From contig JACQUX010000009.1 of NCBI GenBank assembly GCA_016210045.1, forward strand, positions 65,730-129,729: a DNA stretch of 64,000 nt. The letters run 5' to 3'. The stretch's first letter is position 1. Every line of letters starts with the position of its first letter. This stretch comes from Deltaproteobacteria bacterium. Lineage in GTDB: Bacteria; UBA10199; GCA-002796325; JACPFF01. A model generated the notes under the pieces. That model did no database searches. It had not been told where the DNA came from and saw only the letters and a program-made list of their open reading frames with translations. The position numbers and the translations under genes are program-made. Positions 1 to 61,222 of the stretch are shown piece after piece.

Positions 1-780
1 ACCATCGAGCGCATTGCCTGTACGGGACGTGATGGCAGTCGGATTTGGCTCCCGCAGTTGACCGAAGCGGCACGGACCCAGTTGGGACTCCCGAGTGCAT
101 TGGAATGGGATGCACTTTTTCATCTGGCGTATCGTCTTTCATCACATGGCGAACCGTTGCGTCTCCAAGGTGCGCCGCAACCGCGCGTAGCCGCACTGCT
201 CCGCTTGCTGCGGCGGCTCCATCCGGATCAATCCCGGCTAGTGGAACACGGGACCGGATGCGTGATCCGCAACCTGGTTGCAGCGGCCGAAGCGGGGTTT
301 ACTGACCTATTCGCCGTAGAATCTCGTGACACAGATCGTTCGTATCTTGAGAGGACTCTCCCGACGGCCGACGTGCTCCCGGACACCTGCTCGCTGACGG
401 CCATGGACCCGGATGACTACGACGAACGTCCCGCTGCGGCCCGCGACACGGCCGTCAGCATCTGGACCCACCCAGCCATCCAGTGCGCGCTCGACGGCAG
501 TGAATACCCCTATCTCGGTCCCTACATGCGCCGTCATGTCCTCCCCGGTGGCGATGTGTTGCTGCAAACCGATCTGCCGGAGATGGTCTGGGCCGTGGTA
601 CACGGCGCGTTCCCGCTCCAACGTCCGCGGTGGTGGCAACGGTCGCGCCCCGAGCCCCTCGAATGGGTCGTTGTCCACACCGCCCGCGATCCGGTACTCG
701 GCAGTCCGTATGCCGAACGCGGCGTGTGGGTGATATGGCTCCGCCGCTTAGCGGAGCCGACGGTGTTTCTGCCGGTGTAG
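1..780 (+). CDS. Hypothetical protein, 5'-partial (frame is open back to the window edge; the listed start at 58 is TTG)
   Basis: Long ORF open from nt 1; no recognisable motifs; ends before REP copy 1. Confidence 0.35.
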   Translation, partial: TIERIACTGRDGSRIWLPQLTEAARTQLGLPSALEWDALFHLAYRLSSHGEPLRLQGAPQPRVAALLRLLRRLHPDQSRLVEHGTGCVIRNLVAAAEAGFTDLFAVESRDTDRSYLERTLPTADVLPDTCSLTAMDPDDYDERPAAARDTAVSIWTHPAIQCALDGSEYPYLGPYMRRHVLPGGDVLLQTDLPEMVWAVVHGAFPLQRPRWWQRSRPEPLEWVVVHTARDPVLGSPYAERGVWVIWLRRLAEPTVFLPV

Positions 781-862
781 GGTCCGGGTCCGGACGAGAA
801 GGCGATAGCAGCGCGTGCCGCGCGCTCAGCAGATGTTGGCCCACATTCTAAATCATCAGAGC

Positions 863-917
863 GGGGACAGGTACCTTCAAATGGCCGATCGATCGGCATT
901 TGAAGGTACCTGTCCCC
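863..917. repeat. REP hairpin copy 1: GGGGACAGGTACC...GGTACCTGTCCCC with a fully palindromic loop, inside an 88-nt unit (851-939)
   Basis: Perfect inverted repeat seen directly; the same 88-nt unit recurs at 4120-4208; sits between convergent genes. Confidence 0.85.
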
Positions 918-929
918 ATTCAAATGAAG

Positions 930-3194
930 TTACGCGGCGGTGGGTGACGCCGGCAACGCGACCAAATCGGCCGGCACTTTGGAACCGGCGGTCCATGCAG
1001 TATGCAGCGCAGGACCGAGCGGGTGATCACGGTTGATCCGGATAGCGCAGGCGGCGAAAAATCCGTATGGCCCGACATCTCGGACGATCTCAAGCAGCAG
1101 AACACCGCCGCATTGGAGCCGGATCCGTTCGGGGAAGCGCGCGGCGGCGATCTCGGCATCGATGGCTGAGGGGCGACTGGCGCGGATGACGCCGGCGAGC
1201 ATCCCTCCAAGCACCCACAGATGCCCAGTGCTCGCCAGCCACCATGGAAAGGCCACGTAAGATTGCGCGAGCAGCTGAAGACCGCCGAGTGCGATGCCGC
1301 CCAGAGCCCAATGGGCCATCGGGCTGTGCAACATCTCGCGCCGGACCTGTCGCTGCACACCGGCCTGCAGGTGTCCGCGATCGTGTGCAATCGGGGCCAC
1401 GACCGCCCAGATCGCTTCGAGCATACGCGGCACGGGCTCGCCCTCTATCGCGAGGTCGATCGTGACATCGAGCGGGCGCGGCAGCTCGATCGCCAGCGCG
1501 CGCAGTTCCGCATGGAGCGCGGTCCCCAACGTGGCGGCGGCGTGTTCCGCAGCCGGGAGGTCGTGCTGTAGCCGCACGGGTGGGGGATACGTGGCGTGCG
1601 CTTCGAAGATTGTCGGCGCGCTGCGATCGTTGCGGTCCAGCAACAGCAGTGGCGGCAGACCGCTGCATTCCATCAGTCGTGTCAACTGTTCCCGCAGTGC
1701 CGGTGTGACGCCAGCCGGATCGGTCGTGAATGCAATGCCGTCAAGCCCGAGCGACACCGGACGATGGGCATCCGGATAGGCAAGCGCGCCGATTGCCTCG
1801 ATCCACGCGGGAATGCGCGCAACGTCCGCCGCATCGGCCAAATCGATCCGCCACCAACGGTTGCAGTGCATATGGACCCGATCGCGATGGCTCCGTTCGA
1901 CCTGGAGGCGGCCGTATGGTGCGACGAGCTGTTGGATCGTGTCGGACAGCGGCGTTGCGACAAGTTCTCCCCGATACAAATCCGACGTGGGGAGCGCCGG
2001 CTGCCCTGTCGTGGGAAGCGATGCGACGAGCCGCGCGCGTGCTTGCAGTACGGCAAGTTGTTGGAGCTGTCGCTGCAATTGGCGCCGCAGGCTACGGGCG
2101 CGACGACCGGTGGTCTCGAGTAACAACGGGGCCAAGGCCTGCCGCGCGGCCGCCGCATGGTGTCGGCCGATCGCTTCCAGTGCCCGCTCTGCCGCGCGTT
2201 GAATGCCGCGCCGCGTGTCGTGTCGGCGGATACGATGCAACGCCGGAATCGTTGCTGCGGCATACGCGTCCTGCGCCATCGCAATCGTGTGTGCCAGTTG
2301 TCGCCGAGTTAAGAGTTCGGGCCGCGCCAACAACTGGAGCACCTCGTCGTCGCGTTGACCGCGTGCCGTCTGCAACCATGCGTCGAGTTCCGACATCGTG
2401 CCGACGCGGTCCAGCAGGTCCTGACATTGGAATGCCCGCGCAAGCCCAACCAGCGCTGGGAAGCGATCGCGCTCGGCCTGCCAGACATAATGCGCGGCCG
2501 CGTCAAATTGGGTGTCGAAATGTCCGGGCAAGGTCTCGAGCGCGTCACGCAGCAGTCGTTGCGGACGATGCTCAGTGGGGATGGCGTCCGAGGGGGCGAG
2601 CAAACGGCTGCTGCCGTAGATCGCCAGTGGCACGTTGCCCCACGGCGTGTTGATGGCGACGCGCGTGTCTGTGAGGACTGCGGCCAGCAGCGTGACGGCC
2701 GCTGCGCGATCGGCTCCTGTGGCCGTAAACGCCGCCGTCTCCAAGACCTCGAAGAGGGCCAGCAGCTGCGGGGCGTCGTGCTCCACGCGCGTCGCAGGCC
2801 ACCAGGTCGCGTGGATGCGTGCCGCGCCTGCCGCGCGATCCTGCGGTGCCGCAGCGGCCAATGCGCTCAGTTGCCCGGTCAGGAGTGCGGCGTGGTGTCC
2901 AGTGGAGGCGAGATGTCGTGCGTCAGCGGGGACGACGGCCGGCGGCGTAATGCCGATGCCGCCTGCAGCCGACACAGTATCCAGCGATTCGCCCGCCACG
3001 TCGCCGCGTAGCGCTGTCGGTTCGTCGACGCGCGTCATCCGTAACGGGTCCCCACGCACCGGTCGCGGCGCCCGCCGGTCCTGGGGACCCAGCGATCCGC
3101 CCGCCATCGCATAGGCCGGCCGCAATCCTCCCGGCAGCGAAATCAATTCATGAATTGCCCGACGAAGCCGGGGGAGCCCCACTCGCACCGCCAT
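930..3194 (-). CDS. Large hypothetical protein (754 aa, Ala/Arg/Leu-rich)
   Basis: 2.26 kb ORF; GAGGAAAGGG-like SD just upstream of the ATG at 3194; stop codon TAA lies inside the 3' flank of REP unit copy 1. Confidence 0.5.
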   Translation of the reverse strand: MAVRVGLPRLRRAIHELISLPGGLRPAYAMAGGSLGPQDRRAPRPVRGDPLRMTRVDEPTALRGDVAGESLDTVSAAGGIGITPPAVVPADARHLASTGHHAALLTGQLSALAAAAPQDRAAGAARIHATWWPATRVEHDAPQLLALFEVLETAAFTATGADRAAAVTLLAAVLTDTRVAINTPWGNVPLAIYGSSRLLAPSDAIPTEHRPQRLLRDALETLPGHFDTQFDAAAHYVWQAERDRFPALVGLARAFQCQDLLDRVGTMSELDAWLQTARGQRDDEVLQLLARPELLTRRQLAHTIAMAQDAYAAATIPALHRIRRHDTRRGIQRAAERALEAIGRHHAAAARQALAPLLLETTGRRARSLRRQLQRQLQQLAVLQARARLVASLPTTGQPALPTSDLYRGELVATPLSDTIQQLVAPYGRLQVERSHRDRVHMHCNRWWRIDLADAADVARIPAWIEAIGALAYPDAHRPVSLGLDGIAFTTDPAGVTPALREQLTRLMECSGLPPLLLLDRNDRSAPTIFEAHATYPPPVRLQHDLPAAEHAAATLGTALHAELRALAIELPRPLDVTIDLAIEGEPVPRMLEAIWAVVAPIAHDRGHLQAGVQRQVRREMLHSPMAHWALGGIALGGLQLLAQSYVAFPWWLASTGHLWVLGGMLAGVIRASRPSAIDAEIAAARFPERIRLQCGGVLLLEIVRDVGPYGFFAACAIRINRDHPLGPALHTAWTAGSKVPADLVALPASPTAA

Positions 3195-3255
3195 ACCCTT
3201 TCCTCACTCCCCCGCGGCCCTCTAACAGAGCCCACCCCCGCATGTCCAATACATT

Positions 3256-3318
3256 GCAGGGGGACAGGTACCGTCAACAGCCCATTTTATCGGCATCTGA
3301 CGGTACCTGTCCCCCTGC
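3256..3318. repeat. REP hairpin copy 3 (GCAGGGGGACAGGTACC...GGTACCTGTCCCCCTGC)
   Basis: Inverted repeat seen directly, about 110 bp upstream of the RAYT gene. Confidence 0.85.
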
Positions 3319-3430
3319 AATGACTATGTGATCGATTTTCGAACGGTGGGGTCGTGTGATTGAACAATGTTGTGCGTTCCGCGCGGACAATCATAGCGGG
3401 TTGGTGTGAATACTAGCTGGGATTTGCCCG

Positions 3431-4120
3431 GTGTCGCCGTTGGTCCCGTTTCTGCAACAGGGTATCTCTGGTATGGCTCGATTCCCTCGGTCGCTGCTGT
3501 CGGACCTCACATCGCACTTCCATGTCATCTGTCGCGGCAATAATCGCGGAAAATTATTCCTCGCGGAAGAGGACTATGAGCAGTTTCACGGGCTGATGCA
3601 GCGGGCCTGTGCCCTGTGGTCGGCCGAGATTTATCACTATGTCTTCATGACAACGCATACGCATTTCTTATGTTGTGTCCCGACCATTCAGACGTTGTCG
3701 AAGATGTTTCATTGGATCCAGCTCTTGTACTGCCAATATTATCAGCGAAAATATCCCGCGATTGGTCATTTGTGGCACAGCCGTTTTCGTTCGATCCCTA
3801 TTCTTGCAGAATCCCATCTGTTGCGGTGTGGGCGTTACATCGAGCTGAATCCCGTAGCGGCCGGATTAGCCCTGCAGGCTGCAACGTATCGGTGGAGCAG
3901 TTATCAACGGTATGCCTGCGGGAGACCCGACAATTTGGTCACACTCAGTCCTTGGGTCTTGGCGATGGGTGAAGATGTGGGCGAACGGGCATTCGCTTAT
4001 GCGGCGTATGTGGAAGAGGGGGCCACCGCGGGCAGTGACGAAGATGCGCTGCTGTTCGAACAAAAGACGACTCCCAGACTACCGGAGCAACCCCGCATTC
4101 CCAAATGGTGCACGCGTTAA
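3431..4120 (+). CDS. REP-associated tyrosine transposase (RAYT / IS200-like Y1 HUH transposase, COG1943)
   Basis: HUH motif HTHFL; conserved GHLWHSRFRS, YIELNPVAAGL and YRWSSY blocks typical of RayT/TnpA_REP; flanked by REPs on both sides. Confidence 0.85.
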   Translation: MSPLVPFLQQGISGMARFPRSLLSDLTSHFHVICRGNNRGKLFLAEEDYEQFHGLMQRACALWSAEIYHYVFMTTHTHFLCCVPTIQTLSKMFHWIQLLYCQYYQRKYPAIGHLWHSRFRSIPILAESHLLRCGRYIELNPVAAGLALQAATYRWSSYQRYACGRPDNLVTLSPWVLAMGEDVGERAFAYAAYVEEGATAGSDEDALLFEQKTTPRLPEQPRIPKWCTR

Positions 4121-4131
4121 ATCATCAGAGC

Positions 4132-4186
4132 GGGGACAGGTACCGTCAAATGGCCGATTGATCGGCATTTGAAGGTACCTGTCCCC
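4132..4186. repeat. REP hairpin copy 2 (inside 88-nt unit 4120-4208)
   Basis: Near-identical to copy 1 (2 mismatches); between the RAYT stop and the smc stop. Confidence 0.85.
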
Positions 4187-4198
4187 ATTCAAATGAAG

Positions 4199-7100
4199 TT
4201 ACGCGGCGGCGGTTTTGGTGTCGCGGTCGGTGCGGTCGCGGGCGTGGGCGCCGAGTTTGACGGAGACGATCTTGGAGATGCCGGCCTCTTCCATCGTGAC
4301 GCCGTAGAGCGTGTCGGCCAGTTCCATGGTTCGTTTGTTGTGCGTGATCAGGATGAATTGCGCGTAGTCGGTCATCTCCCGCACCATCTCGTTGAACCGG
4401 TCGATGTTCGCGTCGTCGAGCGGGGCGTCGACTTCGTCGAGCAGGCAAAACGGCGATGGCCGCACCAGGAACATCGCGAAGATCATCGCGACAGCGGTGA
4501 GCGCCTTTTCGCCGCCCGACAGCAGCGTCATGTTCTGCAGCTTCTTGCCCGGTGGCTGCGCGATGATTTCCACGCCGGCCTCCAACGCGTTGGATTCGTC
4601 GGTGAGCACCAGCTTCGCGTTGCCGCCGCGGAACAATTTGGGGAACAGTCGCTCGAAGCGTTCGTTGATCGCGGTGAAGGTTTCCACGAAGCGTTCGCGA
4701 CTGACGCGATTGATCTTTTGAATGGCACGCTGCAACGTGGTCAACGAATTTTCCAGGTCGGTGGCTTGGCGGACCAAGAAGTCGTGGCGTGATTGCAGCT
4801 CTTCGAATTCGGTGATTGCGTCGCTGTTCACGCCGCCGAGTTGTTGCACTTTGGCGCGCAGTTCTTCCGCGCGCGCGCTGGCGGGTTCCAGCGCGAAGTC
4901 GTCGCTGAGGTATTGCGGCGCGGCCTCGGCAATTTCCACGCGATATTTTTCCATGATGTCGTAGCGGAGGAAATTCTGCCGTTCCTGCTGTTGCGCCACT
5001 GTCAGTTCGATTGCGTGCTTCGCCTGGACGGCCGTTTCGTGGCGTCCACGAAGTTCCTTCAAGCCGGCCTCCCGGTCGCGCACTTGTTCCGTGGCATCGT
5101 GAAATCGCCGTTGCACATCTTGTTGCGCTTGCAACGCGGCCTCGGCCTCGCGTGCCGCGGCGGCGCGCAGTTCCTGCAATTGGGTGCGTTGCCGCTCCGC
5201 ACTGGCCACGGCCGCTTCGCCGTCACAGATCTCCGCCGCCTTCCGTTCGCTCGCGGTAATCGTTTCGGCGATCGAGTTGGCCAGTCGTTCGATGTCCCGT
5301 TCGCTCGCGCGCGCGCGTTCCTGTTGCGCCGCAAGGTTGGCGCGAATCCGCGCCAGTCGTTCGTTGGTCTGTTCGAGTTCTTGTCGCAACGCCGTTTCCC
5401 GTTCACGGGCCTCGGTCAACGCGCCGGTGGCGGCGCGACATTGCGTATCGAAATCACTACGCGTGGTGGTCAACGTGGCGGCTTCGGTGCCGGCTGTGTC
5501 GCGTTCCGTCTGAATGCGGAGCGTCGTCTGCTGGGCGTCCGTCTGGGCGCGTTGGATCCGCTCGCCTTCCTGTTCCAAGTGGCGCAGCTGTTGCCGATAT
5601 TGGGCGAGCTGCACTTCTTCCGCATGATGATCTTGGGAGAGCGCCGTGACGCGCTGTTGGAGGCCGGCGATTCGTTCCTGACAGCGCCGCTTCAATTCCT
5701 GCGCGGTCTGTAGCGCGGTCTGCGCCGTCGTCGCCGTGACGCGCAACGTTTCGCATTCCCGTCGTCGCGCGAGCAACAACTGCCCCGTCTCGTGGTCGCT
5801 CCCCCCTGTGACGATTCCGGCAGGGCTGAGCACTTCGCCGTCCAGCGTGACAAACGTCGTGGTCGGGTGTTCCTCCCACAGCCGAACGGCGTCCGCGAGA
5901 CTTTGCACGACGACGACATCCGCTGCGAGCAGCGGAACTAACGCCGTAAACGGTTCCGCCGCCGTGACGAATTGGGTCAGCGGGCCGAGCACTCCATCGC
6001 CGCTGAACGCATCGCTGTTCAGCGTGCCCGTACGTCCCGCCAGCGGAATAAATGTGCTGCGTCCATGTCCGCCGTGTTTCAAATAGTCGATCGCCGCCGC
6101 GGCTGCGCCGATCTCTGCGACCACCAGCGCCTGCAGCCGTTCTCCCAACACCGCAGCCACGGCGGTTTCATATTCCGGGACGACTTGGAGGGCATCGGCC
6201 ACCGTGCCGCGCAACCCAGCGCGCACCGGCTCTTCCACTGTGGGTTGGAGTAAGGCCTTGACGCCGACGCCATAGCCTTCCAAGTTGCGTTGCAATTCCT
6301 CCAACGAATGGAGTCGCGATTGCGCTTGCTGCAGCACCGCTTGGCGCGATTCCACTTCCGCTGCTTGCCGTGCCAATTCGGCTTGTTGTTCCGCAATCGT
6401 GGCTGCGACGCTGCCGCGCTCTTCCCCGAGTTGCAAGAATTGTTGTTCGCGGGCGGCGATCGTTCCGCGGACTTCGGCCAGCGTTTGCTGCGTGGTCCGT
6501 TGTTGTTTCGCCAGCGTGGCGGTTTCTTCTTCCGCACGGGCCAACTGGGTCGCCAGTTCCGCAGTGCGACGTTGCAAGGCCTCCGTTCGCGCCGTGACGG
6601 TGGCCAGTTCCCGCTCCGCGTTCATTTGAATCTGTTCTTGCGCGCGGACTGTTTGATGGACAAGTTCGAGTTCCGCGCGCGCCGCCTGACTGGCGGTCTC
6701 GCCCTCGCGCAGTTCGTCGTCGGCGCTCGCCACGCCAAGATCCGCCGCGAGCTTCGTGTCATTGGCGTGATGCAATGCCTCGCGCCAGGCCGCGACACGG
6801 GCCGCGGCCTCTTCCTGTGCCAGGCAAGCCGCGACGCGTTTCGCTTCCCATTCTTCCACTTCCTTCGCGCTGAGCGCCAAGCGGGTTTCGTACAAATGGA
6901 GTTGGTTCTGTAATGCGTAGCTGTGTTGTTGCGCGGCGGACAACGCGGTCTCGATGGCGGCCATTTCCAACCGCAACTCCGCAATCGCTGTTTCTTGGGC
7001 ATTCAACGCAGCCGCAGCGCTCGCTTCCGCCTCGCACTGTTGTTGCAACTCCGTCGCGGTCCGCGTCTGTTCGGTCTGCGCGAGCGTCCATTGATGCGCA

Positions 7101-7960: not shown

Positions 7961-9331
7961 ATGCGACAGAACGACAACATGCAGTCAACGGTCTGGGGCG
8001 CAGTGCGGGCATGCGGCGCGGCGTTGTTGCTCGTCACGGCGGCCTGCGGCAGTAGCACCGGCACCGACACGAGTAGCAGTAGTGGCGGATCGAGCAGCAG
8101 CAGCGGCGGGAGCTCCACCACCCGCAACGTGACCGGTTCGGTCTCGCTCAGCTCGCTTTCCACCTCGCTGAGCGCCAAAGGGGCCAAGACCGCAGTCGAT
8201 GCCTGTACCTCGGTCTCCATCTGTTGCACCGGCTACACCGGCGAATCCTGGACCGTGGCCACGTTGAACAGCGATTGTACCTTTACATTGGCGTTGCCGC
8301 TGGAAAACTACTGCTTCTGCGGCTTCTTCACCGGCACCGACGCCGACAGCGACAACTGCCCCGACACCTACGCCAACTACGTACTGGAAACCATCCCGGT
8401 CTTTGAAGACGTCGGCGGCGCGGTGGACGACATCGACCTCGGCGAATGCGACGGCGACGGCTGCGCAACCGATGTCGACACCCAAGTCGACGTGGACCAA
8501 GACGGTATTGCGAATAGCGACGACACCGACGACGACGGCGACGGCACCGCCGACACCGACGACGACTACACCGACGATGGCTGGCTCAACGCGTGGCAAA
8601 TCGACCTCGACGGCGACAGCCTGCCGGACATCTTTGAAGATCTCTGGGCCGACTACACCGATGCCGACGACGACGGGATTCCGAACTTCCTCGACTTCGA
8701 CATCGACGGCGACGGTGAAGACAACCTGACCGACACCGACGACGACGGCGACGGGACTGCGGACGACACCGACACCGACGACGACGGCGACGGCATCGCC
8801 GACAGCGAAACCTGGGACGACGACGACGGCGACGGCGTCTGGAACTTCCTCGACGGCGACAGCGACGGCGATGGCCTGTTCGCCGACTTCGACGACGACG
8901 ACGACAACGACGGCACGGACGACACGACCGACACCGACGACGACGGCGACGGCCTGACCGACGCCCAAGAAGAAGACGATACCGACGGCGACGGCTTTCC
9001 CGACATGATCGACACCGACGACGACAACGACGGCACGGCCGACACGGCGGACGACGACGACGACGGCGACGGCACGCCGGACGCCTCCGATCCGGATGCT
9101 ATACCGGACGATGAACAGGGATCGCCCTCGTGCTCGGACGACTTCTCGTGTCAACAGATCGTGGAGGAAAATTCCCCGATGCTTGGTGTGATCGGCGCCA
9201 CGTCATGTAATGATTCGAGCCGGTGTCAGACCGATTGCAACCAACTGACGTCGACCGAAGAGGTGTCGCAATGCACCGCCGGATTCGAATCGGCCGGGAA
9301 CACCTGTACGGATAACATCTGCACCTTCTAA
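7961..9331 (+). CDS. Secreted/lipoprotein with about 10 acidic DxDxDG(T/I)xD calcium-binding-type repeats (thrombospondin-type-3-like) and Cys-rich termini
   Basis: Signal peptide with LLLVTAAC lipobox-like site; tandem DTDDDGDGTAD repeats; C-terminal Cys-rich module. Confidence 0.6.
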   Translation: MRQNDNMQSTVWGAVRACGAALLLVTAACGSSTGTDTSSSSGGSSSSSGGSSTTRNVTGSVSLSSLSTSLSAKGAKTAVDACTSVSICCTGYTGESWTVATLNSDCTFTLALPLENYCFCGFFTGTDADSDNCPDTYANYVLETIPVFEDVGGAVDDIDLGECDGDGCATDVDTQVDVDQDGIANSDDTDDDGDGTADTDDDYTDDGWLNAWQIDLDGDSLPDIFEDLWADYTDADDDGIPNFLDFDIDGDGEDNLTDTDDDGDGTADDTDTDDDGDGIADSETWDDDDGDGVWNFLDGDSDGDGLFADFDDDDDNDGTDDTTDTDDDGDGLTDAQEEDDTDGDGFPDMIDTDDDNDGTADTADDDDDGDGTPDASDPDAIPDDEQGSPSCSDDFSCQQIVEENSPMLGVIGATSCNDSSRCQTDCNQLTSTEEVSQCTAGFESAGNTCTDNICTF

Positions 9332-11137: not shown

Positions 11138-11926
11138 GTGAAGAAGAATCCCATCTTCGTCGCACTGGATCGTCCCGACCTGGATGCCGCATTGCAATTG
11201 GCGCAGGAGTTGGCGCCCCACGTCGGCGGATTCAAAGTCGGCTTGGAATTGTTGAACACCGCCGGCGCTCCGCATGTCGTCGCTGCACTTCGCGATTATG
11301 GCCTCCCGATTTTTTTCGACGGCAAATTTCACGATATTCCAAACACGGTGGCCGGCGCAGTGCGTGCCGTCGCGCGGCTCGGCGTGACGTGGTGCAACGT
11401 ACATGCGGCCGGCGGTTCGGCGATGATGCGCGCGGCCGTCGCGGCGGCGCATGAAGGCGCCGAGGCCGCAGGCGTGGTGCCACCGGCGGTGTTGGCGGTC
11501 ACTGTGCTGACGAGTCTGACCGTAACGGATTTGCAGCAACTGGGCGTGTGGCAGATCCCGAACGACGCAGCATTGCAGACGGCGGTCGTCACGCTGGCCG
11601 AACGCGCGCAAGCCGCGGGATGCGCCGGCGTGGTGGCCTCGCCACAGGAAATCGCCACCATTCGTGCTGCATGCGGTCGCGAGTTCCTGATCGTGACGCC
11701 CGGTGTACGGCCGACGTGGACCGGAAGCCAAGACCAAGCGCGCATCATGACGCCGCACGACGCGCTGGCCGCCGGAGCGGATTATCTCGTGATCGGCCGT
11801 CCGATCACCAATCCGTCGCCGGATGTCGGCACTCCGGCGGCTGCAGCGCAGCGCATTCTGCAGGAGATTGATGGTACCCCCCCTCTCCCCGTTGGGGAGA
11901 GGGGAGGGCGAGGGGGAGGCCTATGA
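11138..11926 (+). CDS. pyrF: Orotidine 5'-phosphate decarboxylase
   Basis: FVALD, GGFKVG, FFDGKFHDIPNT, VLTSL, YLVIGRPIT motifs; atypical C-terminal tail encoded by a hairpin repeat. Confidence 0.85.
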   Translation: MKKNPIFVALDRPDLDAALQLAQELAPHVGGFKVGLELLNTAGAPHVVAALRDYGLPIFFDGKFHDIPNTVAGAVRAVARLGVTWCNVHAAGGSAMMRAAVAAAHEGAEAAGVVPPAVLAVTVLTSLTVTDLQQLGVWQIPNDAALQTAVVTLAERAQAAGCAGVVASPQEIATIRAACGREFLIVTPGVRPTWTGSQDQARIMTPHDALAAGADYLVIGRPITNPSPDVGTPAAAAQRILQEIDGTPPLPVGERGGRGGGL

Positions 11927-32423: not shown

Positions 32424-35400
32424 TGCGTCTCGGTCGCCTGGTGCGACATGCTGGATGTGGGTTCCGATTCGTCATGTGTGTAGTTGCGCTGCTGAGTTTC
32501 GCGGCGCGGGTGGACGCCGCCAGCTTCGATCCGAAACTCAAGTGGCATCAACATAAGACTCCGCATTTCATGATCTATGCCGCGCGTTCGCTCGACGGAA
32601 TCGCGCAGCGCGTCGGCCAATTGGCCGAAGAAGCGTACGCGATCTTGCCGCAAAAGTTCGACTGGAAGCCGCTCGGCCGAACGGTGGTTGTTCTCACCGA
32701 CGTCCAAGATGTGGCCAACGGGCTCGCGACCGTGCTGCCGTACAACTATCTCCATCTGCGGGTCACCGCGCCGCGTCCCGACACCGCGCTGGCCAACTAC
32801 GACGATTGGCTGCGCACGCTGATCATGCACGAGTTCACGCATATCATTCATATGGATCAAGCGCGGGGCGTGATGAAACTCCCGCGGTTTCTGCTCGGCA
32901 AACTTGTCTCGCCGAACGGCGTGCTGCCGGGCTGGATGCGCGAGGGCATCGCCGTGTACGAGGAAACACAACAGACGCAAGGCGGACGCAATCGCGGCAG
33001 TTTCAGCAATATGTTGATCCGCACGGCGGTGGACCAACAAAAATTCCCGAAGATCGACCAAGCCGACGGCCTCGGTTGGCGCTGGCCCGGATTCCTGCCG
33101 CAGTACATTTACGGCGGGAAATTCCTGGAATGGTTGGCGAACACCTACGGCGAAGACAAATTGATCCGCTTTCAAAAGAAGTCCGCAGCCAGTCCGCTCT
33201 TTTTCATGAACAACCTGTTGGCGAAACAGGTCTGGAAAAAGAGCTTCTACCAACTCTGGCGGGAATGGCAGGCCGAAGTCTCGAAAACCGCACAAGCCGA
33301 AATCACTGCGGTCCGCGCGGCAGGAGAAACGCCGTTGGAGCCGGTGACCGACGACGGCACGCATCTCTCCGCATTGGCGCTGTCGCCGGATGGGACGCAT
33401 TTGGTCTACACGACCACCGATCCGCATCGGCCGACCGAAATTCGGCTGCGCGATCTTCGCAACGGCGAAGAACAGCGGATTCGTGCGAAGCAGGGGGCGA
33501 CGCAGGCCGCGTTCGATCCGAGCGGGAATCTGATTGCGTATGCGGCGTATACGGCGAATCACGGCTATCGCTACTATTCCGATATCTTCGTGTTCGATCG
33601 GCGCGACGGCAAACTGCGCCGGCTCACGGCGAGTCGCCGCGCACAAGACCCGAGTTTCGCCCCGGACGGAAAATCGCTGCTCTATGTCGTGGAAGACGCC
33701 GGCACGCAGCGCTTGGTCCGCTACGATTTGACCACGTGGAAGGAGCAGCCGCTGCCGATTCCGCACGCGCCGTTCACGCGCTTTAGTCATCCACAGTGGT
33801 CGCCGGACGGCCAATGGCTCGCGGTGTCGTCGTGGCAAGCGGGACAGCAAGATATCTATCTCTATCGGCCGGATGGCAGGCGCGTCCAACGGATCACGAA
33901 CGATCGCGCGCTCGATTTGAGTCCGTCGTGGGATCGGACCGGGCGATATCTCTATTTTTCCTCCGACCGCAGCGGGATTTCAAACGTGTACCGTTACGAC
34001 ATGCGCCGCCGGCGCGCGGAACGTCTGACGAACGTCGTCACCGGCCTGTTCGAGCCGCAGCCGGCGCCGGATGGCAAGACGCTGTACGCGCAGTATTATC
34101 ACGGTGCTGGGTTTGGAATTCGGAAGTTGGCGATCGAAGGGGTGGCTGGTGACTGGGGGCTGGTGACTGGGGATCGGACCATGGGTCACCAATCGCCAGC
34201 CACCAGCCACCAGCCACCAGTCACGAATCCCCAATCCCCAGCCACCAGTCACCAGTCACCGCTTTCCCCGTCACCCTTCCCCAGCAAGCGCTACCACGGT
34301 TTGAGTCCGCGGCTCTTTATCCCGCGCTACTTCATTCCCGGCTTTGTCGCGACGGGGAGCGGTGTGTTGCTCAGCGCGGTGACCGGCAGCAGCGATCCGC
34401 TGCGTTGGCATCTGTGGCAAGCGGGCGGCACGTATCGAACCGATGCGAAGTATCCCGGGTATTTTTTCAATTACACGCTGAATCGCTTCTCGCCGATCAT
34501 GAATTTCGGCGTACTCAATTACGCGACCGACTTCGGGAACCTGACCTTCCTGCACGCCGACGGCACGCTGCGGACCGTGCATATGTATGAAAAACGGCTG
34601 CGCGGCTATGCCGGCATCGCGGTGCCGTACAAACGCCAGATCTTTTCGCTCCAATATTTCATGGAGAATCGGGACAACATTCCGGCGCTGACGGCGGAAG
34701 AGCGCGCGTTGCTGAATCTGGACCGTTTCGCCGGATTCTCCGCGACGTATGGCTGGGGACGGCAGGAACAATATCCGGCCTCGATCAGTCCGGAAGAGGG
34801 GCATCGGTTAGTGATGAACTTCACGGTCACCGACAAGATCCTCGGCAGTAACGAACCGAACGAACAACAAATCTTCTCCGGCGATTTCCGCGAATATATC
34901 AAACTCCCGTGGCGGCATCATGTGCTCGCATTGCGCGTGAAGGGCGGCAAGACCTGGGGCGATACGCTGGTCCAAGGCACATTCGGCATGGGCGGAGCGC
35001 TCGGCGAAGGCGCGCTCGGCGGCGGGGGCGGCTTCACGTATTTCCCCTTGCGCGGACTCCCGGCTGCGGCGATGTCGCGCGCTAACGCGATGTTGATGTC
35101 CGCCGAATATCGCCTGCCGCTCGGTTCGCCGCAACGCGGGCTCGGTACCACGCCGTTCTTTTTACAAAACATCCATGCCGCATTGTTTGCCGATTTCGGG
35201 AATGCGTGGAACAACGGCGAAGACACCGGCAAATGGTTCTTCGATCGTTTTTTCCTCGGCACGGGTGTTGAACTACGCGGCGACTTCGTGGTCGGCCACG
35301 GACTCCCAGTCCAAGGTCGGCTCGGCTACGGCGTCATTGCCGTCAATCGTGGACGGCTCGGCGCCCTCACCGATTCGCTGCTCGGCAACCAAGTCAAATA

Positions 35401-38670: not shown

Positions 38671-38772
38671 GGTCGGGTCGGTTGCTCCTTACATCACTTG
38701 TCGGCCGGCGGCGGAAAAAAGTTGCGTGTCTCAACGTGTGGACAAAGCCAAGCCCCCCAAATACATCCGAAT

Positions 38773-38827
38773 GGGGACAGGTACCTTCGAAGGTGCGCCA
38801 AATGGGCATCGCATGGTACCTGTCCCC
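38773..38827. repeat. REP hairpin copy 4, inside the conserved leader of giant paralog A
   Basis: GGGGACAGGTACC...GGTACCTGTCCCC seen directly. Confidence 0.85.
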
Positions 38828-38904
38828 ACTGGGATGCAGTTGGGGGCGCAACTTTCTACGCGCGCTGCCGATGAACGGAGGCGAAGGGGTCCAAGGGAAC
38901 GAGC

Positions 38905-41613
38905 ATGCGGCGAGTGGGTTCACATGGGTTGGGAGTGCATCCGCGTATGGCAGCGCGACCGGGTGCGGTGCGGCAGGCGGACGCGGTGTATGACCACGCG
39001 CTGCGGACTGGGGGCACGGTCACGGAGGCGTGGCGCGCGGTGCGGGAGGGGCAGCATCAGATCTGCTTCGTCACTGCGGGGGATGACCCCGAGGCGGACG
39101 TCGCGGCAATGGCCACAGCGGGCACGAGTGCCGCACCGCTCACGTGGCCGCATCTCCTCGATGCGAGCGGGATTGGGAATGCGTTGGCCCAGTTAGCAGG
39201 GCGAGATGCGCAATCGGTGCAGCAATCGGTGCGTTTGGACTTGCGTCCGAAGCAAGACACTGCGGCCGTGTTGCGTGCGTTCCAGGTCGCCGCGACGACC
39301 AGTGCCAAAGTGGGGGATACGCGCGGAGCATGGCAGGCGGTCGTGGAATTGTACGATCATCAGCATACGCTGCTCGTGCGTTACGTCCCGGCAGCGGTGG
39401 ACCAACCGCCCCGCTTCGAATTCCCGTTGACCGCGACGACGCAGCTGGGAAAGGCGCTCCGCGACTTCGTGCGCGGACGGGCGGAGCCACTCGGCGCTGC
39501 ATACAGCGCGGAACGGATCGAGATCCTGTTGGCGGTCGAGTGCAGCGCGTTGCGCGAGCATGCGCGCCAGCAACTGCAGGAGGCCGCAACAGCAGTACTC
39601 GAACAATGCTGCGCCGCCGGATGTCAGAATGTTGTGATTCGAGACGCGACTGCAACGATGACTGCGTTGCGCGATGGTAGAATGGTTGGGCCGAGCGGAG
39701 CCCCTGTGGTTGTAGAGACGGCAGTATCTGCTGTTCCCCCGCCGACCACACCATCTGCCTCGCCGGCCTCGCTCGACCGTCAACGGATGGAAATCGCGCG
39801 TCTGCTCGATGCAAACGATCCGCCGTGGCCTGTGCCGACTCGTTTGCCCGTGCCGCTCACAGCGCGGGAACGGTGGCTCGCATACGGCGAGCCGGAGGAG
39901 TTTACCGTACCGCAAGCAGCCACGAGCGTGGCCGCAGTGGTGGGCACGATAACGGCTCGCGCGCGTACTGCCACGCGTCCGTTGAAGATCGTTTTCCCTT
40001 GTGTGTCGACGCAGGCGCTCCAGATATTATTATTAGTCAAAAGTCCGGTGCCGATCCTGATCCAGGACGGATCGAAAGTCGAGTATTGCCGATATCCGGA
40101 TCGGGGCGATGTCTTGGGCGGCATCGACGTGGCCGATATTGGAGAACATCTCCACCTGACCATTTTGGCAATCGAGGCGTTGGCTACTACAAAAACAGCT
40201 GAACTGTTGCAACTGTTCCCGCTCTCGATTACGCTGACCCCGTCGCTGCTCGCGCCGACCCGCGCGCAACAGGAGTGGGCCGAGGCGATGGTCGCACGAC
40301 TGGCGTTGGCTGGCTGGGGTCGAGTCGTGGTGCGGACGGACGCCGGCCAGGTGCTGGCGGCCGGGTATCACCCCATCGCAATGCCCGCCGCCTTCTGGCC
40401 CGAGCCTCTCTTTCAACGGGTCGACCCGGTCGATCCTGTCGTGGATGCAGGTGACGCGATCTTGGTTGACGGCGAGCGGATCGGGATCGAGGCGCTGCGT
40501 CGTCTGGTCGCTGCGCCGGCACGACCGATTGAGGTCTATTACACAGACCCTGAATTCCCTTCCGAAGTCGCAGCCATGTTCCCGGAATTGGAAGCGGCGC
40601 TGAGTGACGATGGGGATGTGTTGGTCAGCTTTTCTACCCCAGTGCGCCAAGTGGCCTTCGGGCGCTCGGCGATTATTCAACGCTACGCGACGCTGGCATG
40701 GGTGGTGCTGGATGCCGTCGGCGTGAAACTCAGTGCGCCCGAGGCGGTGCGTGTGGCGGAGTCGTGTCTCACGAATTTCGGGATCGAATCGTTGTCGGCA
40801 CGTGGGCGGGAACTCTACTTCCAAGGTGTGCGGGGTTCCGTGGCGCAGCTGCAACAACAGCGACGGGACTTTGGTTTTGCCGTTCCATCCTTTGCGGCGC
40901 TGGCCGGGGCGCTGCGCGAGGCCTATTACGCGCTTCGTTTCGGAGATGGCCGGAGCGCACGCGAACTTTCCGTAACCCTCGATTTGACGGCCGTGTCGTA
41001 TGGCTTGTTCCCGCATGTGCATCACAACGATCCGGACAAGCGCTTTCCCGCGTTTGAGCGGGCGTTGTCGAACCCACAGCCCAGCGCGGTTCCGCCAGTA
41101 GGGTTGCTCTCGTTGTTGGAACAATTCCCGCGACTCCTGCAACTGGCCGCGCGAACGTTGCAAGGCACGTGGCAGCTGCTGTTGCAGGAGGCGATTGTCG
41201 ATCCGCCGAAATACGTCCGCCGCTTTGCGGGGAGGGTCTCGCGGCGCGGGACGATCGCGCTCGACAACCCGAGTGCGGCCGACGAGGCGATCCGCATCGC
41301 GCTGCTGGCACTCGCACTGCAAGAAATTCCAAACGCCACTGCACGGCAAGTCGCGCGGGCGTATCGCGCGGTGAGCGTAATCGCAGTGCCGCAGCAGAGC
41401 ACACCCGCCGAGTTGGCCCGACCGCTCCGCGCGGCGCATCATCCGTGGCACGCGGCGTGGGCAGTGGCGCGCGCGGTGTTGACCGAACCTTCGTCATCGG
41501 GCGCCAGAGGGCTTTATCTTAGTGGAGTGCTGATCCGCGCCGATCTCGATCCAGTCACCGCCGCGTTACTGGACCAACTGCTCCCGCCGCCTGCTCTACG
41601 GCGCAAGGGGTAG
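38905..41613 (+). CDS. Giant modular protein paralog A (902 aa), uncharacterised family
   Basis: N-terminal 300 aa is about 75% identical to paralog B; shares repeated modules (xxLxxAGWxxVVVRTDAGQVLAA and PxRQVAFG) with the 1695- and 3114-aa ORFs. Confidence 0.6.
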   Translation: MRRVGSHGLGVHPRMAARPGAVRQADAVYDHALRTGGTVTEAWRAVREGQHQICFVTAGDDPEADVAAMATAGTSAAPLTWPHLLDASGIGNALAQLAGRDAQSVQQSVRLDLRPKQDTAAVLRAFQVAATTSAKVGDTRGAWQAVVELYDHQHTLLVRYVPAAVDQPPRFEFPLTATTQLGKALRDFVRGRAEPLGAAYSAERIEILLAVECSALREHARQQLQEAATAVLEQCCAAGCQNVVIRDATATMTALRDGRMVGPSGAPVVVETAVSAVPPPTTPSASPASLDRQRMEIARLLDANDPPWPVPTRLPVPLTARERWLAYGEPEEFTVPQAATSVAAVVGTITARARTATRPLKIVFPCVSTQALQILLLVKSPVPILIQDGSKVEYCRYPDRGDVLGGIDVADIGEHLHLTILAIEALATTKTAELLQLFPLSITLTPSLLAPTRAQQEWAEAMVARLALAGWGRVVVRTDAGQVLAAGYHPIAMPAAFWPEPLFQRVDPVDPVVDAGDAILVDGERIGIEALRRLVAAPARPIEVYYTDPEFPSEVAAMFPELEAALSDDGDVLVSFSTPVRQVAFGRSAIIQRYATLAWVVLDAVGVKLSAPEAVRVAESCLTNFGIESLSARGRELYFQGVRGSVAQLQQQRRDFGFAVPSFAALAGALREAYYALRFGDGRSARELSVTLDLTAVSYGLFPHVHHNDPDKRFPAFERALSNPQPSAVPPVGLLSLLEQFPRLLQLAARTLQGTWQLLLQEAIVDPPKYVRRFAGRVSRRGTIALDNPSAADEAIRIALLALALQEIPNATARQVARAYRAVSVIAVPQQSTPAELARPLRAAHHPWHAAWAVARAVLTEPSSSGARGLYLSGVLIRADLDPVTAALLDQLLPPPALRRKG

Positions 41614-42264: not shown

Positions 42265-42337
42265 AGGCGGTCAATTGAAAGTTTGATTTTTAATTGTCAC
42301 AGTGTGACGCCCAGTCCATCTCCTCAACTCCATCCTA

Positions 42338-42394
42338 GGGGGACAGGTACCGTCAAATGTGCGCCAAATGGGCATCGCATGGTACCTGTCCCCC
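42338..42394. repeat. REP hairpin copy 5, inside the conserved leader of giant paralog B
   Basis: CCTAGGGGGACAGGTACC...GGTACCTGTCCCCCTAGG seen directly. Confidence 0.85.
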
Positions 42395-42468
42395 TAGGAT
42401 GTACTGGGAACGCAACTTTTGGCGGGTGTGGCCGATGAAGAGAGGCGAAGGGATCTCAGGGAACGAGC

Positions 42469-45400
42469 ATGCGACGCGTCGGTTCACATGGTTTGGGAGT
42501 GCATTCGCGTGTGGGAGCGCGTCCGGGCGCGGTGCGGCATGCGGATGCGGTGTATGACCACGCGCTGCGGACTGGCGGCACGGTCGCCGATGCGTGGCGC
42601 GCAGTGCGGGAGGGGCAGCATCGGATCTGCTTCGTCACTGCGGCGGGGGAGGACCCCGGGGCGGAGGCCGCTGCGCTGGCCTCTGCGGGCAGGGTCTCGG
42701 CGCCCCTCACGTGGTCGGAGTCGCTCGGCGCAACGGGGATTGGCAATGCACTGATCCAGCTCGCCGCGCGTGAACCCGATGCGGCGCAACGGCCGGTACG
42801 GCTCACGTTGCGACCGAATCCCGGCGACGTAGTGCCGGCATTTTTCCAAGCCGTGACGACGAGCGCCAAACTCGGTGACACGCGCGGGGTGTGGCAAGCG
42901 GTCGTGGAGCTGTACGATCATCAGCGTGCATTAGTGGTTCGCTACGGTCCGGCCGTTGCGGATCAACCGCGCCGCTTTGAATTCCCGCTGACCGCGACGA
43001 CGCAAGTGGCGAAGGCCTTGCGCGACTTGGTGCGCAATCGGGTGGTGCCGCTCGGCGCCGCATACGGCGCGGAACGGGTCGAGATCCATTTGGCAGTGAC
43101 GCTCGACGCGTTGCGCGAACATTCGCGGAAACAATTGACAACTGCGGCGACCGAGGCGCTCGAACGATGTCGCGCTGCCGGATGGCGCGAGGTCGTGATC
43201 CGGACGCTGCAGGAAGTCGTCGCGGCGTTACAACAGGGTGTCGTGGTTGCGAACACGGGACGTGCGCCGCATCCGAGCGGCACGGCCGTTGGGCAGGTCG
43301 ACGCTCCGGCGTCGATGCATGCGATAGTCGCGTTGATGAATCGAGCAGAGCTCGATCCCTGCTCCCTCCCGCTCCTGCCGCGTTGGGCTGTGGCACTGCC
43401 CATGGAGGGCTTCGCCCCGCCGCTGCCGGTGGAGACTCGCATCCCACGAGGCCCTTCACTGACGGCAACGGATGTGGCGCGCGAGTTGTTATCGGCCACG
43501 CCAGCCGGGGAGGGATGGACGGCTGCGCTGCTCCAGTCGACACTGCAGCAGCAGGCGCGGGATCGGCGTCGTGTCTATGCGCTGCTGCGGCCCTTCGCCG
43601 TGCCTCCGTTGCAGTTACTGGCCACGGTGGAGAGCGATGCCTCGTTCTGGTTGCTGGCGACGGACGGGATGTATCTGCGACATGTCGATGCGGCCGGACA
43701 GTTACGAGGCTATCAATATTGCACCGACGCCGACCGGGCCGCGCTCGTCGTGGAGGAATTATTGGCGATGGCTGCAGCGCCGGAATTTGAGTGTTTGCGA
43801 CAGACCCCGTTCGAATTGCAAATTGCGACCCGCGGCGTCCCCGCCGATCGGCACCTACAGCAGTGGGCGCAGTCTGTGGCCGCGTGGCTCCGCGACGCGG
43901 GCTACGAGCACGTCATCATCACGGCAGAACGAGGCCCGATTTTGGCCGCGACCGATATGCGGTTCGCAGAGGCCGCGACCGATGAGCCCGCCCTCTTGGC
44001 ATCGCCGCCGACCGATGCCGTGGAACTCGTGATGCCATCGGCCGCTGCCGCCGTGCGCGAGGCATGGGACGCGCTCCCGACGCGTCTGCCGCCGGCCGGG
44101 GCGTGCGTGATCGACGGTAGTGCGGATACCGCAGCCATGGTCTCGTTTTGGCTATTCGTACACGGGCTTTGGAGCGCCGCGAATCCGCGCCGTGGAGACG
44201 TGTTCTTGCGAGTCAACGGCCGCATCGTGGCGCACGCATTGTTCGATACGGCGAGCGGCGCGCCGTTGGGGCTGGAGATCGACGGCGCTGCCGTCACGGT
44301 AGCACAACTTCGTACGGTGTTGATCACTGACGAGGAGTTAGAGGGCGGGAAATCCCGATTGATCTTTGCCCCGCTTTTTGCGCCGGTCGAGATTCGCTAT
44401 CGCACGCCGACGCTTCCGGCCGGTGTGGCAGCCCTCTTCCCGTTGTTGGAGGAGAGCTATCATGACATGGGGTTTGCGGCGCTCGTCTTTTCCACGCCGC
44501 TGCGCCAATTCGAATTCGGCACCGCGGCCAGTATCGGACGATGGACGCATTGGCTGACCACAATGGCGGCGGCCTTCGATATCCCACTCCAACCCAACGA
44601 AGCGCGCAGCGTGGCCGAATATTTTTTGTGGCCGTTTGGCATCAAGCCGCTACTCCCGGCCGTCGCAACCATGCTCGGCGCGGATCGGGGTCGGATTTCT
44701 CGAAATGCGGAAGGCTATGGCACTCCACTGCCCGGCAGCGTCGTGGAGAGCTGCCGGCGGGCATTGGCGGAGCTGCGGCTGCTCCAAGTCGCGGCGCGGA
44801 GGCAAATTCGCGTCGTGTCGCTGGGTGGCACGGACTTGCCCGGATGGGTCGCGCAGCAAATAAAAACTGCGGAGGCGTTCGATGCCGCGCTCATGACGGC
44901 TCCTGACGACCCACGCAAATTGCCGTTTCTGCTGCTCTGGACGTTGGGCTTGATCCCCGATTCCCGATTTAGTCGACTCAGCCCGTTATTGCAAACGGTC
45001 TGGGATGCTGTGGTCAAGGGCATGGCTGATCCACGGTCGTATCTCCGCCTCTTTACCTTGATTTGGATGGTGAACACGGGAAGCGGGAAGGCAAAGGCCA
45101 AAGGTCGAAGACGGCTCGACCTGCCCGAGGCCGGACGCGTCGAGGTCATTCGCTTGCAACTGATCGCACTGGTGTTGGAGCTGGCGGACCGCGCCGTGGC
45201 CCCGGAGATCATCCGAGGACTGTATCAATCGATTCATCTGTTGCCGGTGCCGCTCGAGCTGGATAGTACGGCACCTCGTTATCCGCTCGCGTCCTCCCAG
45301 CACCCGTATGGAGAGCTCTTTACCACGCTGCAGCAAATGCTGCCGCGACTCGAACTCGCTGCGCAAGTCGCAGCGACCGTTGACACCGAGACCTTGTTGG

Positions 45401-60180: not shown

Positions 60181-61065
60181 TTACATATTGCCGGGTGCGA
60201 CGATTAAGCCGACTTGTGCCATCAAGTCGTGGTGGGCGTGATTACGACTGGAGATCCCGAGTCGGTGGAGATAGGCGTGGGCCGCTTCGTGGGCAAAGAC
60301 CGTTGCGCCGTTGGACCCGGCGGCGACTCCCACATTGACGAAGATCCGCCCTGAACCGGAGTCATACAGTCCACCGGGGGCGCCATTGCCCGGCACGTCG
60401 AAGGCATAATAGATCGTCTTGCCATCTTCGGAGAGGAGGGTTCGTTCTCCCCCGAGGAGTGCAGTCGTCTTCTCCTGCGAACGTCGCCGTTCCAACTCCA
60501 CCGGCGACACCCTCTGGAATTGTACGATTGTGGCATGGCGTAGTGCCGCAGTGGCGTGCGCTACCGCGGCCTGGTGTGCCTCGTCGGAGATAGTGGTTCC
60601 ACGGGCCGTCAGTAGTGGACGGAGTCGGGTGGCGGCTGCGGGAAAGTCGCGAATGGCAGTGGCGCGGTGCGCTTCAATCCGGACCTCCAGCGGCGACAGT
60701 ATCCGGACTTCAGTTTTTTCAGTCGTAGGGGGGACGGGGAGCGCCCTCCTGGTCGGTGCCGGCGCCGCGGGTCCTCCGGCCTGACTGGTCCCCACCGGCC
60801 TGGCCAGGATCGACTGCCGCACCCCTTGGCACCCCGCGACGCCGTGGAGCCGCTTGGCTGCAGCAGCCGCCTGTTCGGTTGTCAGCGCCGGCAGGCAGTT
60901 CGTTGCCCTATCGGCCGAACAAGTCCCATTCGCCGACACGGCAGCACCCAACCCCGCCGCGCGCAGACAACGTGCCGTTTGAGGCGTAGTGGGGGCAGTA
61001 ATCGGCAGGCGCGGCGGACCCATATCCCTATTATCGACGGATTGCGTCCTCCAGTTGCCACGCAT
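60181..61065 (-). CDS. Hypothetical protein with C-terminal HExxH (HEAAHAYLH) zinc-metallopeptidase-like motif
   Basis: Single HExxH motif near the C-terminus; start uncertain. Confidence 0.4.
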   Translation of the reverse strand: MRGNWRTQSVDNRDMGPPRLPITAPTTPQTARCLRAAGLGAAVSANGTCSADRATNCLPALTTEQAAAAAKRLHGVAGCQGVRQSILARPVGTSQAGGPAAPAPTRRALPVPPTTEKTEVRILSPLEVRIEAHRATAIRDFPAAATRLRPLLTARGTTISDEAHQAAVAHATAALRHATIVQFQRVSPVELERRRSQEKTTALLGGERTLLSEDGKTIYYAFDVPGNGAPGGLYDSGSGRIFVNVGVAAGSNGATVFAHEAAHAYLHRLGISSRNHAHHDLMAQVGLIVAPGNM

Positions 61066-61133
61066 GAGCCCCCTGATTGACGCCGCAGCCCAGTCGGCCT
61101 ATCAATCGCGCCTGGCATGATAATAACTGCATC

Positions 61134-61196
61134 GCAGGGGGACAGGTACCGTCGGATATAGGAAATATGCGGATTTGTCGGTACCTGTCCCCCTGC
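61134..61196. repeat. REP hairpin copy 6, immediately upstream of birA
   Basis: GCAGGGGGACAGGTACC...GGTACCTGTCCCCCTGC seen directly. Confidence 0.85.
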
Positions 61197-61222
61197 GAGG
61201 TGTTGAGGAATTGGCAGCGATT

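Follow-up and report, generated by a model that had tools for sequence, protein, structure and literature searches.

In the classification of Quentin 2018 (PMC6006769), TnpA-Y1 proteins of class 2 share the signature Y---NP. Those of subclass 2.1 have the tyrosine motif YIELNP or Y[IV]HLNP, a HuH motif reading NHVH or NH[YF]H, an 'SS' tail motif, a median length of 238 amino acids (aa) and a C-terminal extension with a helix-turn-helix (HTH)-like domain (Bac_DnaA_C, HTH_23 or HTH_28), subgroup 2.1.2 being heterogeneous there, and no repetitive extragenic palindrome (REP) was detected for them. Subclass 2.2 has the tyrosine motif YIHYNP, and a GT[AG]G foot defines the REPs of subclasses 2.2, 2.4, 2.5, 2.7 and 2.8. 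The same work equates subclass 2.1 with group 1 of the RAYTs (Bertels 2017, PMC5581495) and with the TIRYTs (Di Nocera 2013, PMC3733652), whose genes are flanked by terminal inverted repeats that share GGGGWSAS; some of these are self-complementary and occur in moderate copy number, as dimers or clusters. Here we describe a gene for a Y1 transposase-like protein and the hairpin repeat that brackets it, in a 64-kb stretch of contig JACQUX010000009.1 (positions 65,730 to 129,729) of a 'Deltaproteobacteria' metagenome-assembled genome (MAG), which we call the window. We put at about 0.7 the probability that this locus is a REPtron-like TIRtron, a known kind of system, consisting of a TIRYT-type Y1 gene, present once in the window, and its cognate repeat.

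Searching both strands of the whole window for the core sequence GGGGACAGGTACC returned 12 exact matches, which form six inverted pairs of the form GGGGACAGGTACC-N29-GGTACCTGTCCCC. By chance, 0.82 matches of the 13-mer would be expected, and none of 100 shuffles reached 13; an extra match with two mismatches, at 57033, is unrelated to the six pairs. The repeat observation of the original prediction, six copies of a palindrome, is confirmed by these exact core pairs. Its start positions for three copies (863, 4132 and 38773) coincide with the core, while those for the other three (3256, 42338 and 61134) take in paired bases beyond the 13-mer, the true core starts being 3260, 42339 and 61138. 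The variable loops of 25-30 nt that it described were not borne out, as the spacer is 29 nt in all six copies and is itself largely paired.

The stems extend outward past the core, such that each element is a near-palindrome of about 81-95 nt with an actual loop of 4-9 nt. When folded as single-stranded DNA, each of the six segments of about 83 nt gave one long hairpin, at -25 to -35 kcal/mol and with z = -6 to -12 against shuffles. Two elements, neither assigned a strand, flank the Y1 gene: the upstream one spans 3247-3327 (core arms 3260-3272/3302-3314; outer stem CATTGCAG/CTGCAATG; DNA fold -34.6 kcal/mol, z = -12), and the downstream one spans 4118-4212 (core arms 4132-4144/4174-4186; -27.7 kcal/mol). 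The downstream element has a near-identical twin at 849-943 (core arms 863-875/905-917; -30.3 kcal/mol, z = -10.9). The remaining three, likewise without strand, lie in the 5' leader of the gene at 38905-41613 (element 38760-38840; core arms 38773-38785/38815-38827), in the 5' leader of the gene at 42469-47556 (element 42326-42406; core arms 42339-42351/42381-42393) and between divergent genes (element 61125-61205; core arms 61138-61150/61180-61192). All 12 half-elements align over about 40 nt, with the half-unit consensus AAnTCATy..AG-GGGGACAGGTACC-GTCAAATGCCCAT, and each element therefore consists of two inverted half-units placed back to back. In effect, an element is the gene's two terminal inverted repeats without the gene between them, comparable to a REPIN doublet or to a gene-less miniature inverted-repeat transposable element (MITE).

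The Y1 gene, an HUH-Y1 gene that is RAYT-like and of the TIRYT/TnpA-Y1 subclass 2.1 type, lies on the plus strand at 3473-4120, between the copies at 3260 and 4132. It encodes 215 aa, or 229 aa from an alternative GTG start at 3431, and its open reading frame (ORF) matches Pfam Y1_Tnp (PF01797) with E = 8e-11. It is the sole member of its family in the window, with 90 of 90 family queries matching just the 3-4 kb region. The HuH motif falls at H62-T63-H64 (3656-3664), the predicted catalytic Tyr122 stands in YIELNP (residues 122-127, 3836-3853), and WSS occupies residues 141-143. In two alignments of relatives (A1 and A3), H62, H64, Y122 and N126 are invariant, and P127 is invariant in A1 and nearly so in A3; S142 and S143 are nearly invariant in relatives. 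An identical protein is on record, labelled 'MAG: transposase [Deltaproteobacteria bacterium]'.

An AlphaFold (AF2) model of the protein had a mean predicted local-distance difference test score (pLDDT) of 88 and a predicted template-modelling score (pTM) of 0.82, with low confidence in the C-terminal 30 residues. Its top fold match in the PDB was 4ER8, the RayT-REP complex (E = 6e-7, target TM 0.74), followed by the TnpA proteins of IS608, ISDra2 and IS200 (E ~4e-4). A single-protein phmmer search of the PDB gave no match and a family profile was needed; with it, E. coli TnpA-REP (4ER8) was matched at E = 2e-10 and ISDra2 TnpA at E = 0.04. Both profile and predicted fold are thus nearest to E. 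coli TnpA-REP, and the protein does not group with IS200/IS605 TnpA, the outcome that the original prediction had named as speaking against it.

The combination of YIELNP, WSS and a repeat that begins GGGGACAG places the protein in TnpA-Y1 subclass 2.1, which is the TIRYT/TIRtron group, an assignment that rests on motifs and flanking repeats. The sequence GGGGACAG fits GGGGWSAS and opens the cores at 3260 on the plus strand and at 4186 on the minus strand, where it forms the outer end. The likeness to TIRtrons covers the protein, a Y1 HUH protein of about 215-240 aa with a WSS tail motif, and the repeats, which flank the gene in inverted orientation, are in part self-complementary ('double palindromic') and occur moderately often as dimers, and have a wide, patchy taxonomic spread. 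A difference is that the window's gene is flanked by complete hairpin doublets and not by single repeats; another is that Quentin et al. gave no REP-like sequences for subclass 2.1. The locus is also like the REPtrons and REPINs of E. coli TnpA-REP and Pseudomonas, in that a class 2 Y1 gene, present as a single copy in the window, is bracketed by dispersed intergenic palindromes, the doublets of two inverted units form a long hairpin (the REPIN architecture), and the closest solved fold is that of RayT bound to a REP hairpin.

The putative cognate relationship between enzyme and repeat is well supported by three independent lines of evidence, and the bracketed layout is seen again with the closest homolog and in five other phyla. 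The closest homolog of the window's protein (P0002, 48% identity, locus L206; P and L numbers are our own handles for proteins and loci) is bracketed by hairpins of the form GGGGACAGGCACC-N11-GGTGCCTGTCCCC, with the upstream core starting 182 nt before the start codon and the second hairpin lying 4 nt past the stop. Relative to the window core, one core base is changed in this hairpin, and the change is compensated in the opposite arm. A second set of loci was selected on DNA, by an exact-pattern scan over one genome per species that yielded at least 120 loci. Among the matches listed, 7 of 120 hairpin-selected loci had a family member about 30-310 nt from a core, compared with about 0.2-0.3 such loci expected, by our own estimate, for a single-copy gene in 8-kb windows. 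These seven belong to a Coriobacteriales MAG, two Prevotella, Rossellomorea, [Bacillus] enclensis, Allosphingosinicella and an alphaproteobacterial MAG, which represent Actinomycetota, Bacteroidota, Bacillota and Alphaproteobacteria. Again among the matches listed, the Y1 family is the only specific gene family that recurs beside the hairpins across phyla. The largest gene cluster beside them, of response-regulator/GGDEF genes, was rejected as a generic, non-specific product of single linkage.

A third set of 80 metagenome loci was selected by protein similarity alone, at 30-43% identity. Most of these loci with enough flanking sequence have inverted repeats that start with (G)GGG[AT]C[AG], about 40-90 nt upstream of the start codon and 3-30 nt past the stop, and the type of repeat tracks the protein clade in an approximate neighbour-joining tree. 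Four further protein-selected loci, from a clade of proteins of about 250 aa, gave a mixed outcome. Dehalobacter has an exact 13-mer upstream of the gene, about 140 nt lying between the end of this core and the start codon, as well as five further exact copies nearby, and Pelosinus has core variants differing by 1-2 nt at -59 and +6; no core is adjacent to the gene in Bacillus sp. FJAT-45066 or in a second Coriobacteriales MAG.

The anatomy of the repeat across genomes was compared in 128 distinct hairpins, with shuffled or slid sequences as controls. At the seven positions directly outside the core, Watson-Crick pairing, which included all four pair types, was found in 72-91% of copies against 18-45% in controls; at the seven positions directly inside, it was found in 73-91%, against 16-43%. 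Pairing on both sides of the core indicates a general plan in which a lineage-specific outer stem is followed by the invariant 13-bp core, a lineage-specific inner stem and the loop. In many lineages the two halves are small palindromes in their own right, of the form X-core-X', paired in 58-79% of cases at positions 3-6 and in 51-65% at position 7. Single half-units also exist, 45 of 340 cores being unpaired.

Some lineages show features of their own. In Alphaproteobacteria the cores abut without a spacer and form a 26-nt perfect palindrome, GGGGACAGGTACCGGTACCTGTCCCC, often in tandem (L031 2242-2267, L045 7557-7619, L083 2866-2891 and L114 4230-4255). In four Planctomycetota MAGs of different genomes (L040, L048, L059 and L117), the hairpins share a conserved 37-nt spacer with the consensus TTTTGTGCGAAGCACCCGGAGGGCCGTTCCGGCAAAA, and conservation there exceeds the 13-bp core. 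In Dehalobacter sp. DCM (CP092282.1), a BIME-like cluster of half-units, made up of five exact cores in the same orientation and one core with one mismatch, occupies 1.1 kb of intergenic DNA (L210 14216-15322) about 4 kb from the Y1 gene.

In the scan of one genome per species, the exact 13-bp pair turned up at no fewer than 120 loci, spread over about 70 genomes. The phyla represented number at least 10, namely Bacillota, Bacteroidota, Actinomycetota, Pseudomonadota, Planctomycetota, Acidobacteriota, Elusimicrobiota, Spirochaetota, Thermotogota and Omnitrophota, in addition to the source 'Deltaproteobacteria' MAG. With 26 specified bases, we calculate from the size of the collection that about 0.01 chance occurrences would be expected in 596 Gb. 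Carriers include isolates with complete or draft genomes, namely Rossellomorea, Paucisalibacillus, Metabacillus and Bacillus infantis. The exact core adjoins three TIRYT protein clades with only 25-30% identity between them, and nearer relatives of each clade carry other repeats. One tentative reading, to which we give somewhat less than even odds, is that the GGGGACAGGTACC hairpin represents one pan-bacterial family of non-autonomous palindromic elements. We found no paper that names the 13-mer: literature matches to the 12- or 13-mer were unrelated eukaryotic primers (figures were not searchable), and the core is absent from the texts and supplements searched of Di Nocera 2013 (PMC3733652) and Quentin 2018 (PMC6006769).

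On the ORF map of the window all six copies are intergenic, in agreement with the original prediction. Copies 863 and 4132 lie between convergent genes, copies 3260, 38773 and 61138 between divergent genes, and copy 42339 between same-strand genes, of which the downstream one has it in its 5' leader. Copy 3260 separates the divergent ORF 930-3194 (minus strand) from the Y1 gene, and copy 61138 separates ORF 60181-61065 (minus strand) from ORF 61597-62646 (plus strand), residues 94-344 of which match type III pantothenate kinase. Hairpins in other genomes also avoid ORFs, with 33% lying inside ORFs of at least 120 aa versus 86% of random positions.

Two pairs of copies in the window are related beyond the core. 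The segments 849-943 and 4118-4212 are one unit of about 92 nt that differs at 3 positions and has sharp borders and unrelated surroundings; this pair looks like one recent copy event, and no target-site duplication is visible around the unit. The first three bases of the unit, TAA, serve as the Y1 stop codon (4118-4120), and from its right end two unrelated ORFs on the minus strand take their three final codons and stop: SMC, which is convergent to the Y1 gene and ends ...KTAAA* (stop 4199-4201), and ORF 930-3194, which ends ...PTAA* (stop 930-932). The element thus overlaps and completes the 3' ends of genes on both strands. Copies 38773 and 42339, in turn, have their right half in common and, downstream of it, about 240 nt from the leaders and coding regions of two paralogous genes, and are carried by a tandem segmental duplication whose left border is at the hairpin. 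In 38760-39590 and 42326-43150, the leaders and 5' coding regions of these paralogs (38905-41613 and 42469-47556) are 76-87% identical; Pfam gives no match for either gene. The homology begins at the hairpin or within it, which makes the hairpin the left edge of the duplication; it may have served as a recombination breakpoint.

Several observations weigh against the assignment to a TIRtron with a mobile cognate repeat. The HuH motif of the window's protein reads T-H-T-H where the family has N-H-V-H, with both histidines kept, and Pfam finds no C-terminal HTH domain in it. A homolog nearly as close as P0002 (P0003, 47% identity, L205) has no flanking hairpins. The exact 13-mer was found at none of the 80 protein-selected metagenome loci, which indicates that the core is specific to some lineages and not to the whole family. 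Among the six copies, at least the two at 38773 and 42339 came by segmental duplication and not by transposition, so the six are not six independent events, and the copy count covers the 64-kb window alone. We found no target-site signature or empty site for any copy, and the papers found give no biochemical data on any subclass 2.1/TIRYT enzyme. Covariation in a DNA palindrome can, moreover, stem from inverted duplication and concerted evolution, and is no proof of selection for a hairpin. Upstream of P0003 (L205 330-400) there are two copies of GTGCCAGGCAC, which resemble the inner parts of two core arms fused; this pair could be the remnant of a lost hairpin, or chance.

The original prediction had called the locus a classic REP/RAYT arrangement. 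In such a system, as in E. coli and Pseudomonas, REPs tagged with GTAG would form REPINs and a group 2/3 RayT would mobilise them. The layout, with the gene between palindromes, fits this description, as do the best PDB match, E. coli TnpA-REP, the sole NCBIfam match, REP_Tyr_transpos (NF047646), and the label that JGI gives to relatives, 'REP element-mobilizing transposase RayT'. However, the NCBIfam score of 49.2 bits falls under the 80-bit equivalog cutoff for RayT, and neither the core nor the outer stem has GTAG or GTGG at its foot in any of the six elements. YIELNP, WSS and a length of about 215-240 aa fit subclass 2.1 and not 2.2 (YIHYNP) or 2.5, and the end of the repeat agrees with GGGGWSAS, the TIRYT consensus. 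In addition, the conserved part of the repeat is here a 13-bp block inside the stem, surrounded by lineage-specific stems, and is identical across phyla, whereas PMC8266576 and PMC6006769 describe the classical REPs of groups 2 and 3 as varying between species and co-evolving with their RAYT. What stands is therefore a Y1 gene for a RAYT-like enzyme bracketed by a dispersed repeat, and the canonical form of the system is quite unlikely here. A different possibility, which we regard as unlikely, is that the gene belongs to an ordinary active insertion sequence (IS) and that the hairpins are its short-lived MITEs, with neither domestication nor long-term host association. An IS typically has terminal inverted repeats on both sides of a transposase-like gene, group 1 RAYTs are the second most IS-like after group 6 (6.3% duplicated, 1.2% on plasmids; Bertels 2017, PMC5581495), the patchy spread across phyla implies horizontal transfer, and a few members of the family are on plasmids. 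Against this stand the presence of one gene copy versus six repeats in the window, the spacers of the two gene-flanking copies, which are about 70% alike and not identical, and the rarity of the family on plasmids (17 of 72,556 records) and of the hairpin pattern on viral contigs, where a single match gave no evidence of phage carriage. One plasmid member, in Skermanella, carries a different repeat, GGGGTCAGAGCAA. This alternative and the TIRtron reading differ solely in the selfish versus domesticated status of the element.

With the TnpA proteins of IS200/IS605 (IS608, ISDra2), the window's protein shares the HUH/Tyr catalytic core and fold and, presumably, a single-stranded DNA hairpin as substrate; it differs from them in having a Y...NP in place of a Y...Q motif, no tnpB-like neighbour among the window ORFs and one copy in the window, where such IS are multi-copy and near-identical and frequently come with tnpB, and the ends of the unit are inverted repeats, not asymmetric subterminal hairpins, with sequence and fold similarity weaker than to RayT. 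Like MITEs, the elements are short, non-coding and intergenic, are made up of both terminal inverted repeats of a unit that bears a transposase, and outnumber the gene; they differ from MITEs in the lack of a visible target-site duplication and in the type of the presumed enzyme, which would be an HUH-Y1 single-strand enzyme, not a DDE transposase. It is also conceivable, but very unlikely, that the hairpins are chiefly structural or regulatory elements of the host, such as terminators, attenuators, mRNA-stabilising stem-loops or protein-binding sites, and that their adjacency to the Y1 gene is incidental. Their position between convergent genes or in divergent and 5'-leader regions, the very stable folds and the avoidance of ORFs in other genomes would suit such elements, but the Y1 adjacency recurs in several phyla and with the closest homolog. 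Intrinsic terminators were rejected, with no terminator-like call in 700-4400 and no T-run behind any of the six copies, and so were known RNA families, as Rfam 15 gave no match at gathering score in the window and only sub-threshold look-alikes of eukaryotic miRNA precursors (E <= 1). Secondary host roles are known for REPs, and these hairpins may have one too.

If the locus is a TIRtron with a cognate repeat, its elements would become accessible as single-stranded DNA, for example on the lagging-strand template, and would fold into long hairpins with the invariant 13-bp core at mid-stem. The enzyme would then recognise the GGGGAC... core on the folded single strand, Tyr122 would nick near the hairpin foot while His62 and His64 hold the metal, and the strand would be rejoined elsewhere, with the element copied or moved into intergenic DNA. 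We infer the single-stranded substrate, the cleavage and rejoining, and the spreading of copies by the enzyme and not by recombination, from the analogy to E. coli TnpA-REP and IS608 TnpA. The TnpA proteins of IS608 and ISDra2 act on single-stranded hairpin ends. For TnpA-REP, PMC8266576 describes cleavage of single-stranded hairpin REPs and strand transfer in vitro.

We made a number of further observations on the gene and its surroundings. A Logan unitig that contains the Y1 gene (L202, SRR12113390) corresponds to window positions 911-4189, beginning inside the 863 hairpin and ending just past the 4132 hairpin, and the repeats thus break de Bruijn assemblies; the gene was found in three runs (SRR12113385, SRR12113390 and SRR12113401). 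Canonical REPs have genome-wide copy numbers of tens to hundreds, and on this point the six copies in 64 kb and the unitig ends give indirect evidence. In two Bacillota, Dehalobacter sp. DCM (L210 10001-13481) and Bacillus sp. FJAT-45066 (L212 8465-10762), the Y1 gene adjoins a Mg-chelatase/ComM-like gene, which is followed by dprA in Dehalobacter sp. DCM. This adjacency may be conserved synteny with genes for DNA uptake or single-strand-DNA processing.

Other features of the window were noted as well. Runs of 7-nt repeats (GTCACCA / GCCACCA and complement) occur at 34135-34294 and 51949-52051, 17.8 kb apart and up to 92% mutually complementary, and the first of these sites also holds an internal inverted pair. 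A long array of 39-nt periodic GAC-rich repeats at 8341-9082, inside ORF 7961-9331, encodes aspartate-rich repeats of the D-x-D-x-D-G type, which resemble calcium-binding repeats. At the 3' end of ORF 11138-11926 lies an unrelated GC-rich hairpin, CCCCCTCTCCCC-GTT-GGGGAGAGGGG (11879-11904), whose loose match to GGGGWSAS is by chance only. A search with the PADLOC models of defence systems returned nothing meaningful.

For the annotation of the window, these data mean that the 'transposase' is to be read as a RAYT-like TIRYT and the six hairpins as its cognate repeat family, not as terminators or RNA genes. No RAYT-like group is larger than subclass 2.1 (group 1), and our family profile search returned 7,951 clusters at E <= 1e-30. 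This subclass, earlier given no REP partner, gains a candidate substrate in the hairpin with an invariant 13-bp core, which ranges from Bacillus relatives to Prevotella and Planctomycetota and whose culturable hosts include Rossellomorea, Paucisalibacillus, Metabacillus and Dehalobacter. If the hairpin is indeed one pan-bacterial family, it would differ from classical REP/RAYT pairs, whose two partners diverge together, and would imply either an unusually rigid protein-DNA recognition code or repeated transfer of element and enzyme between phyla.

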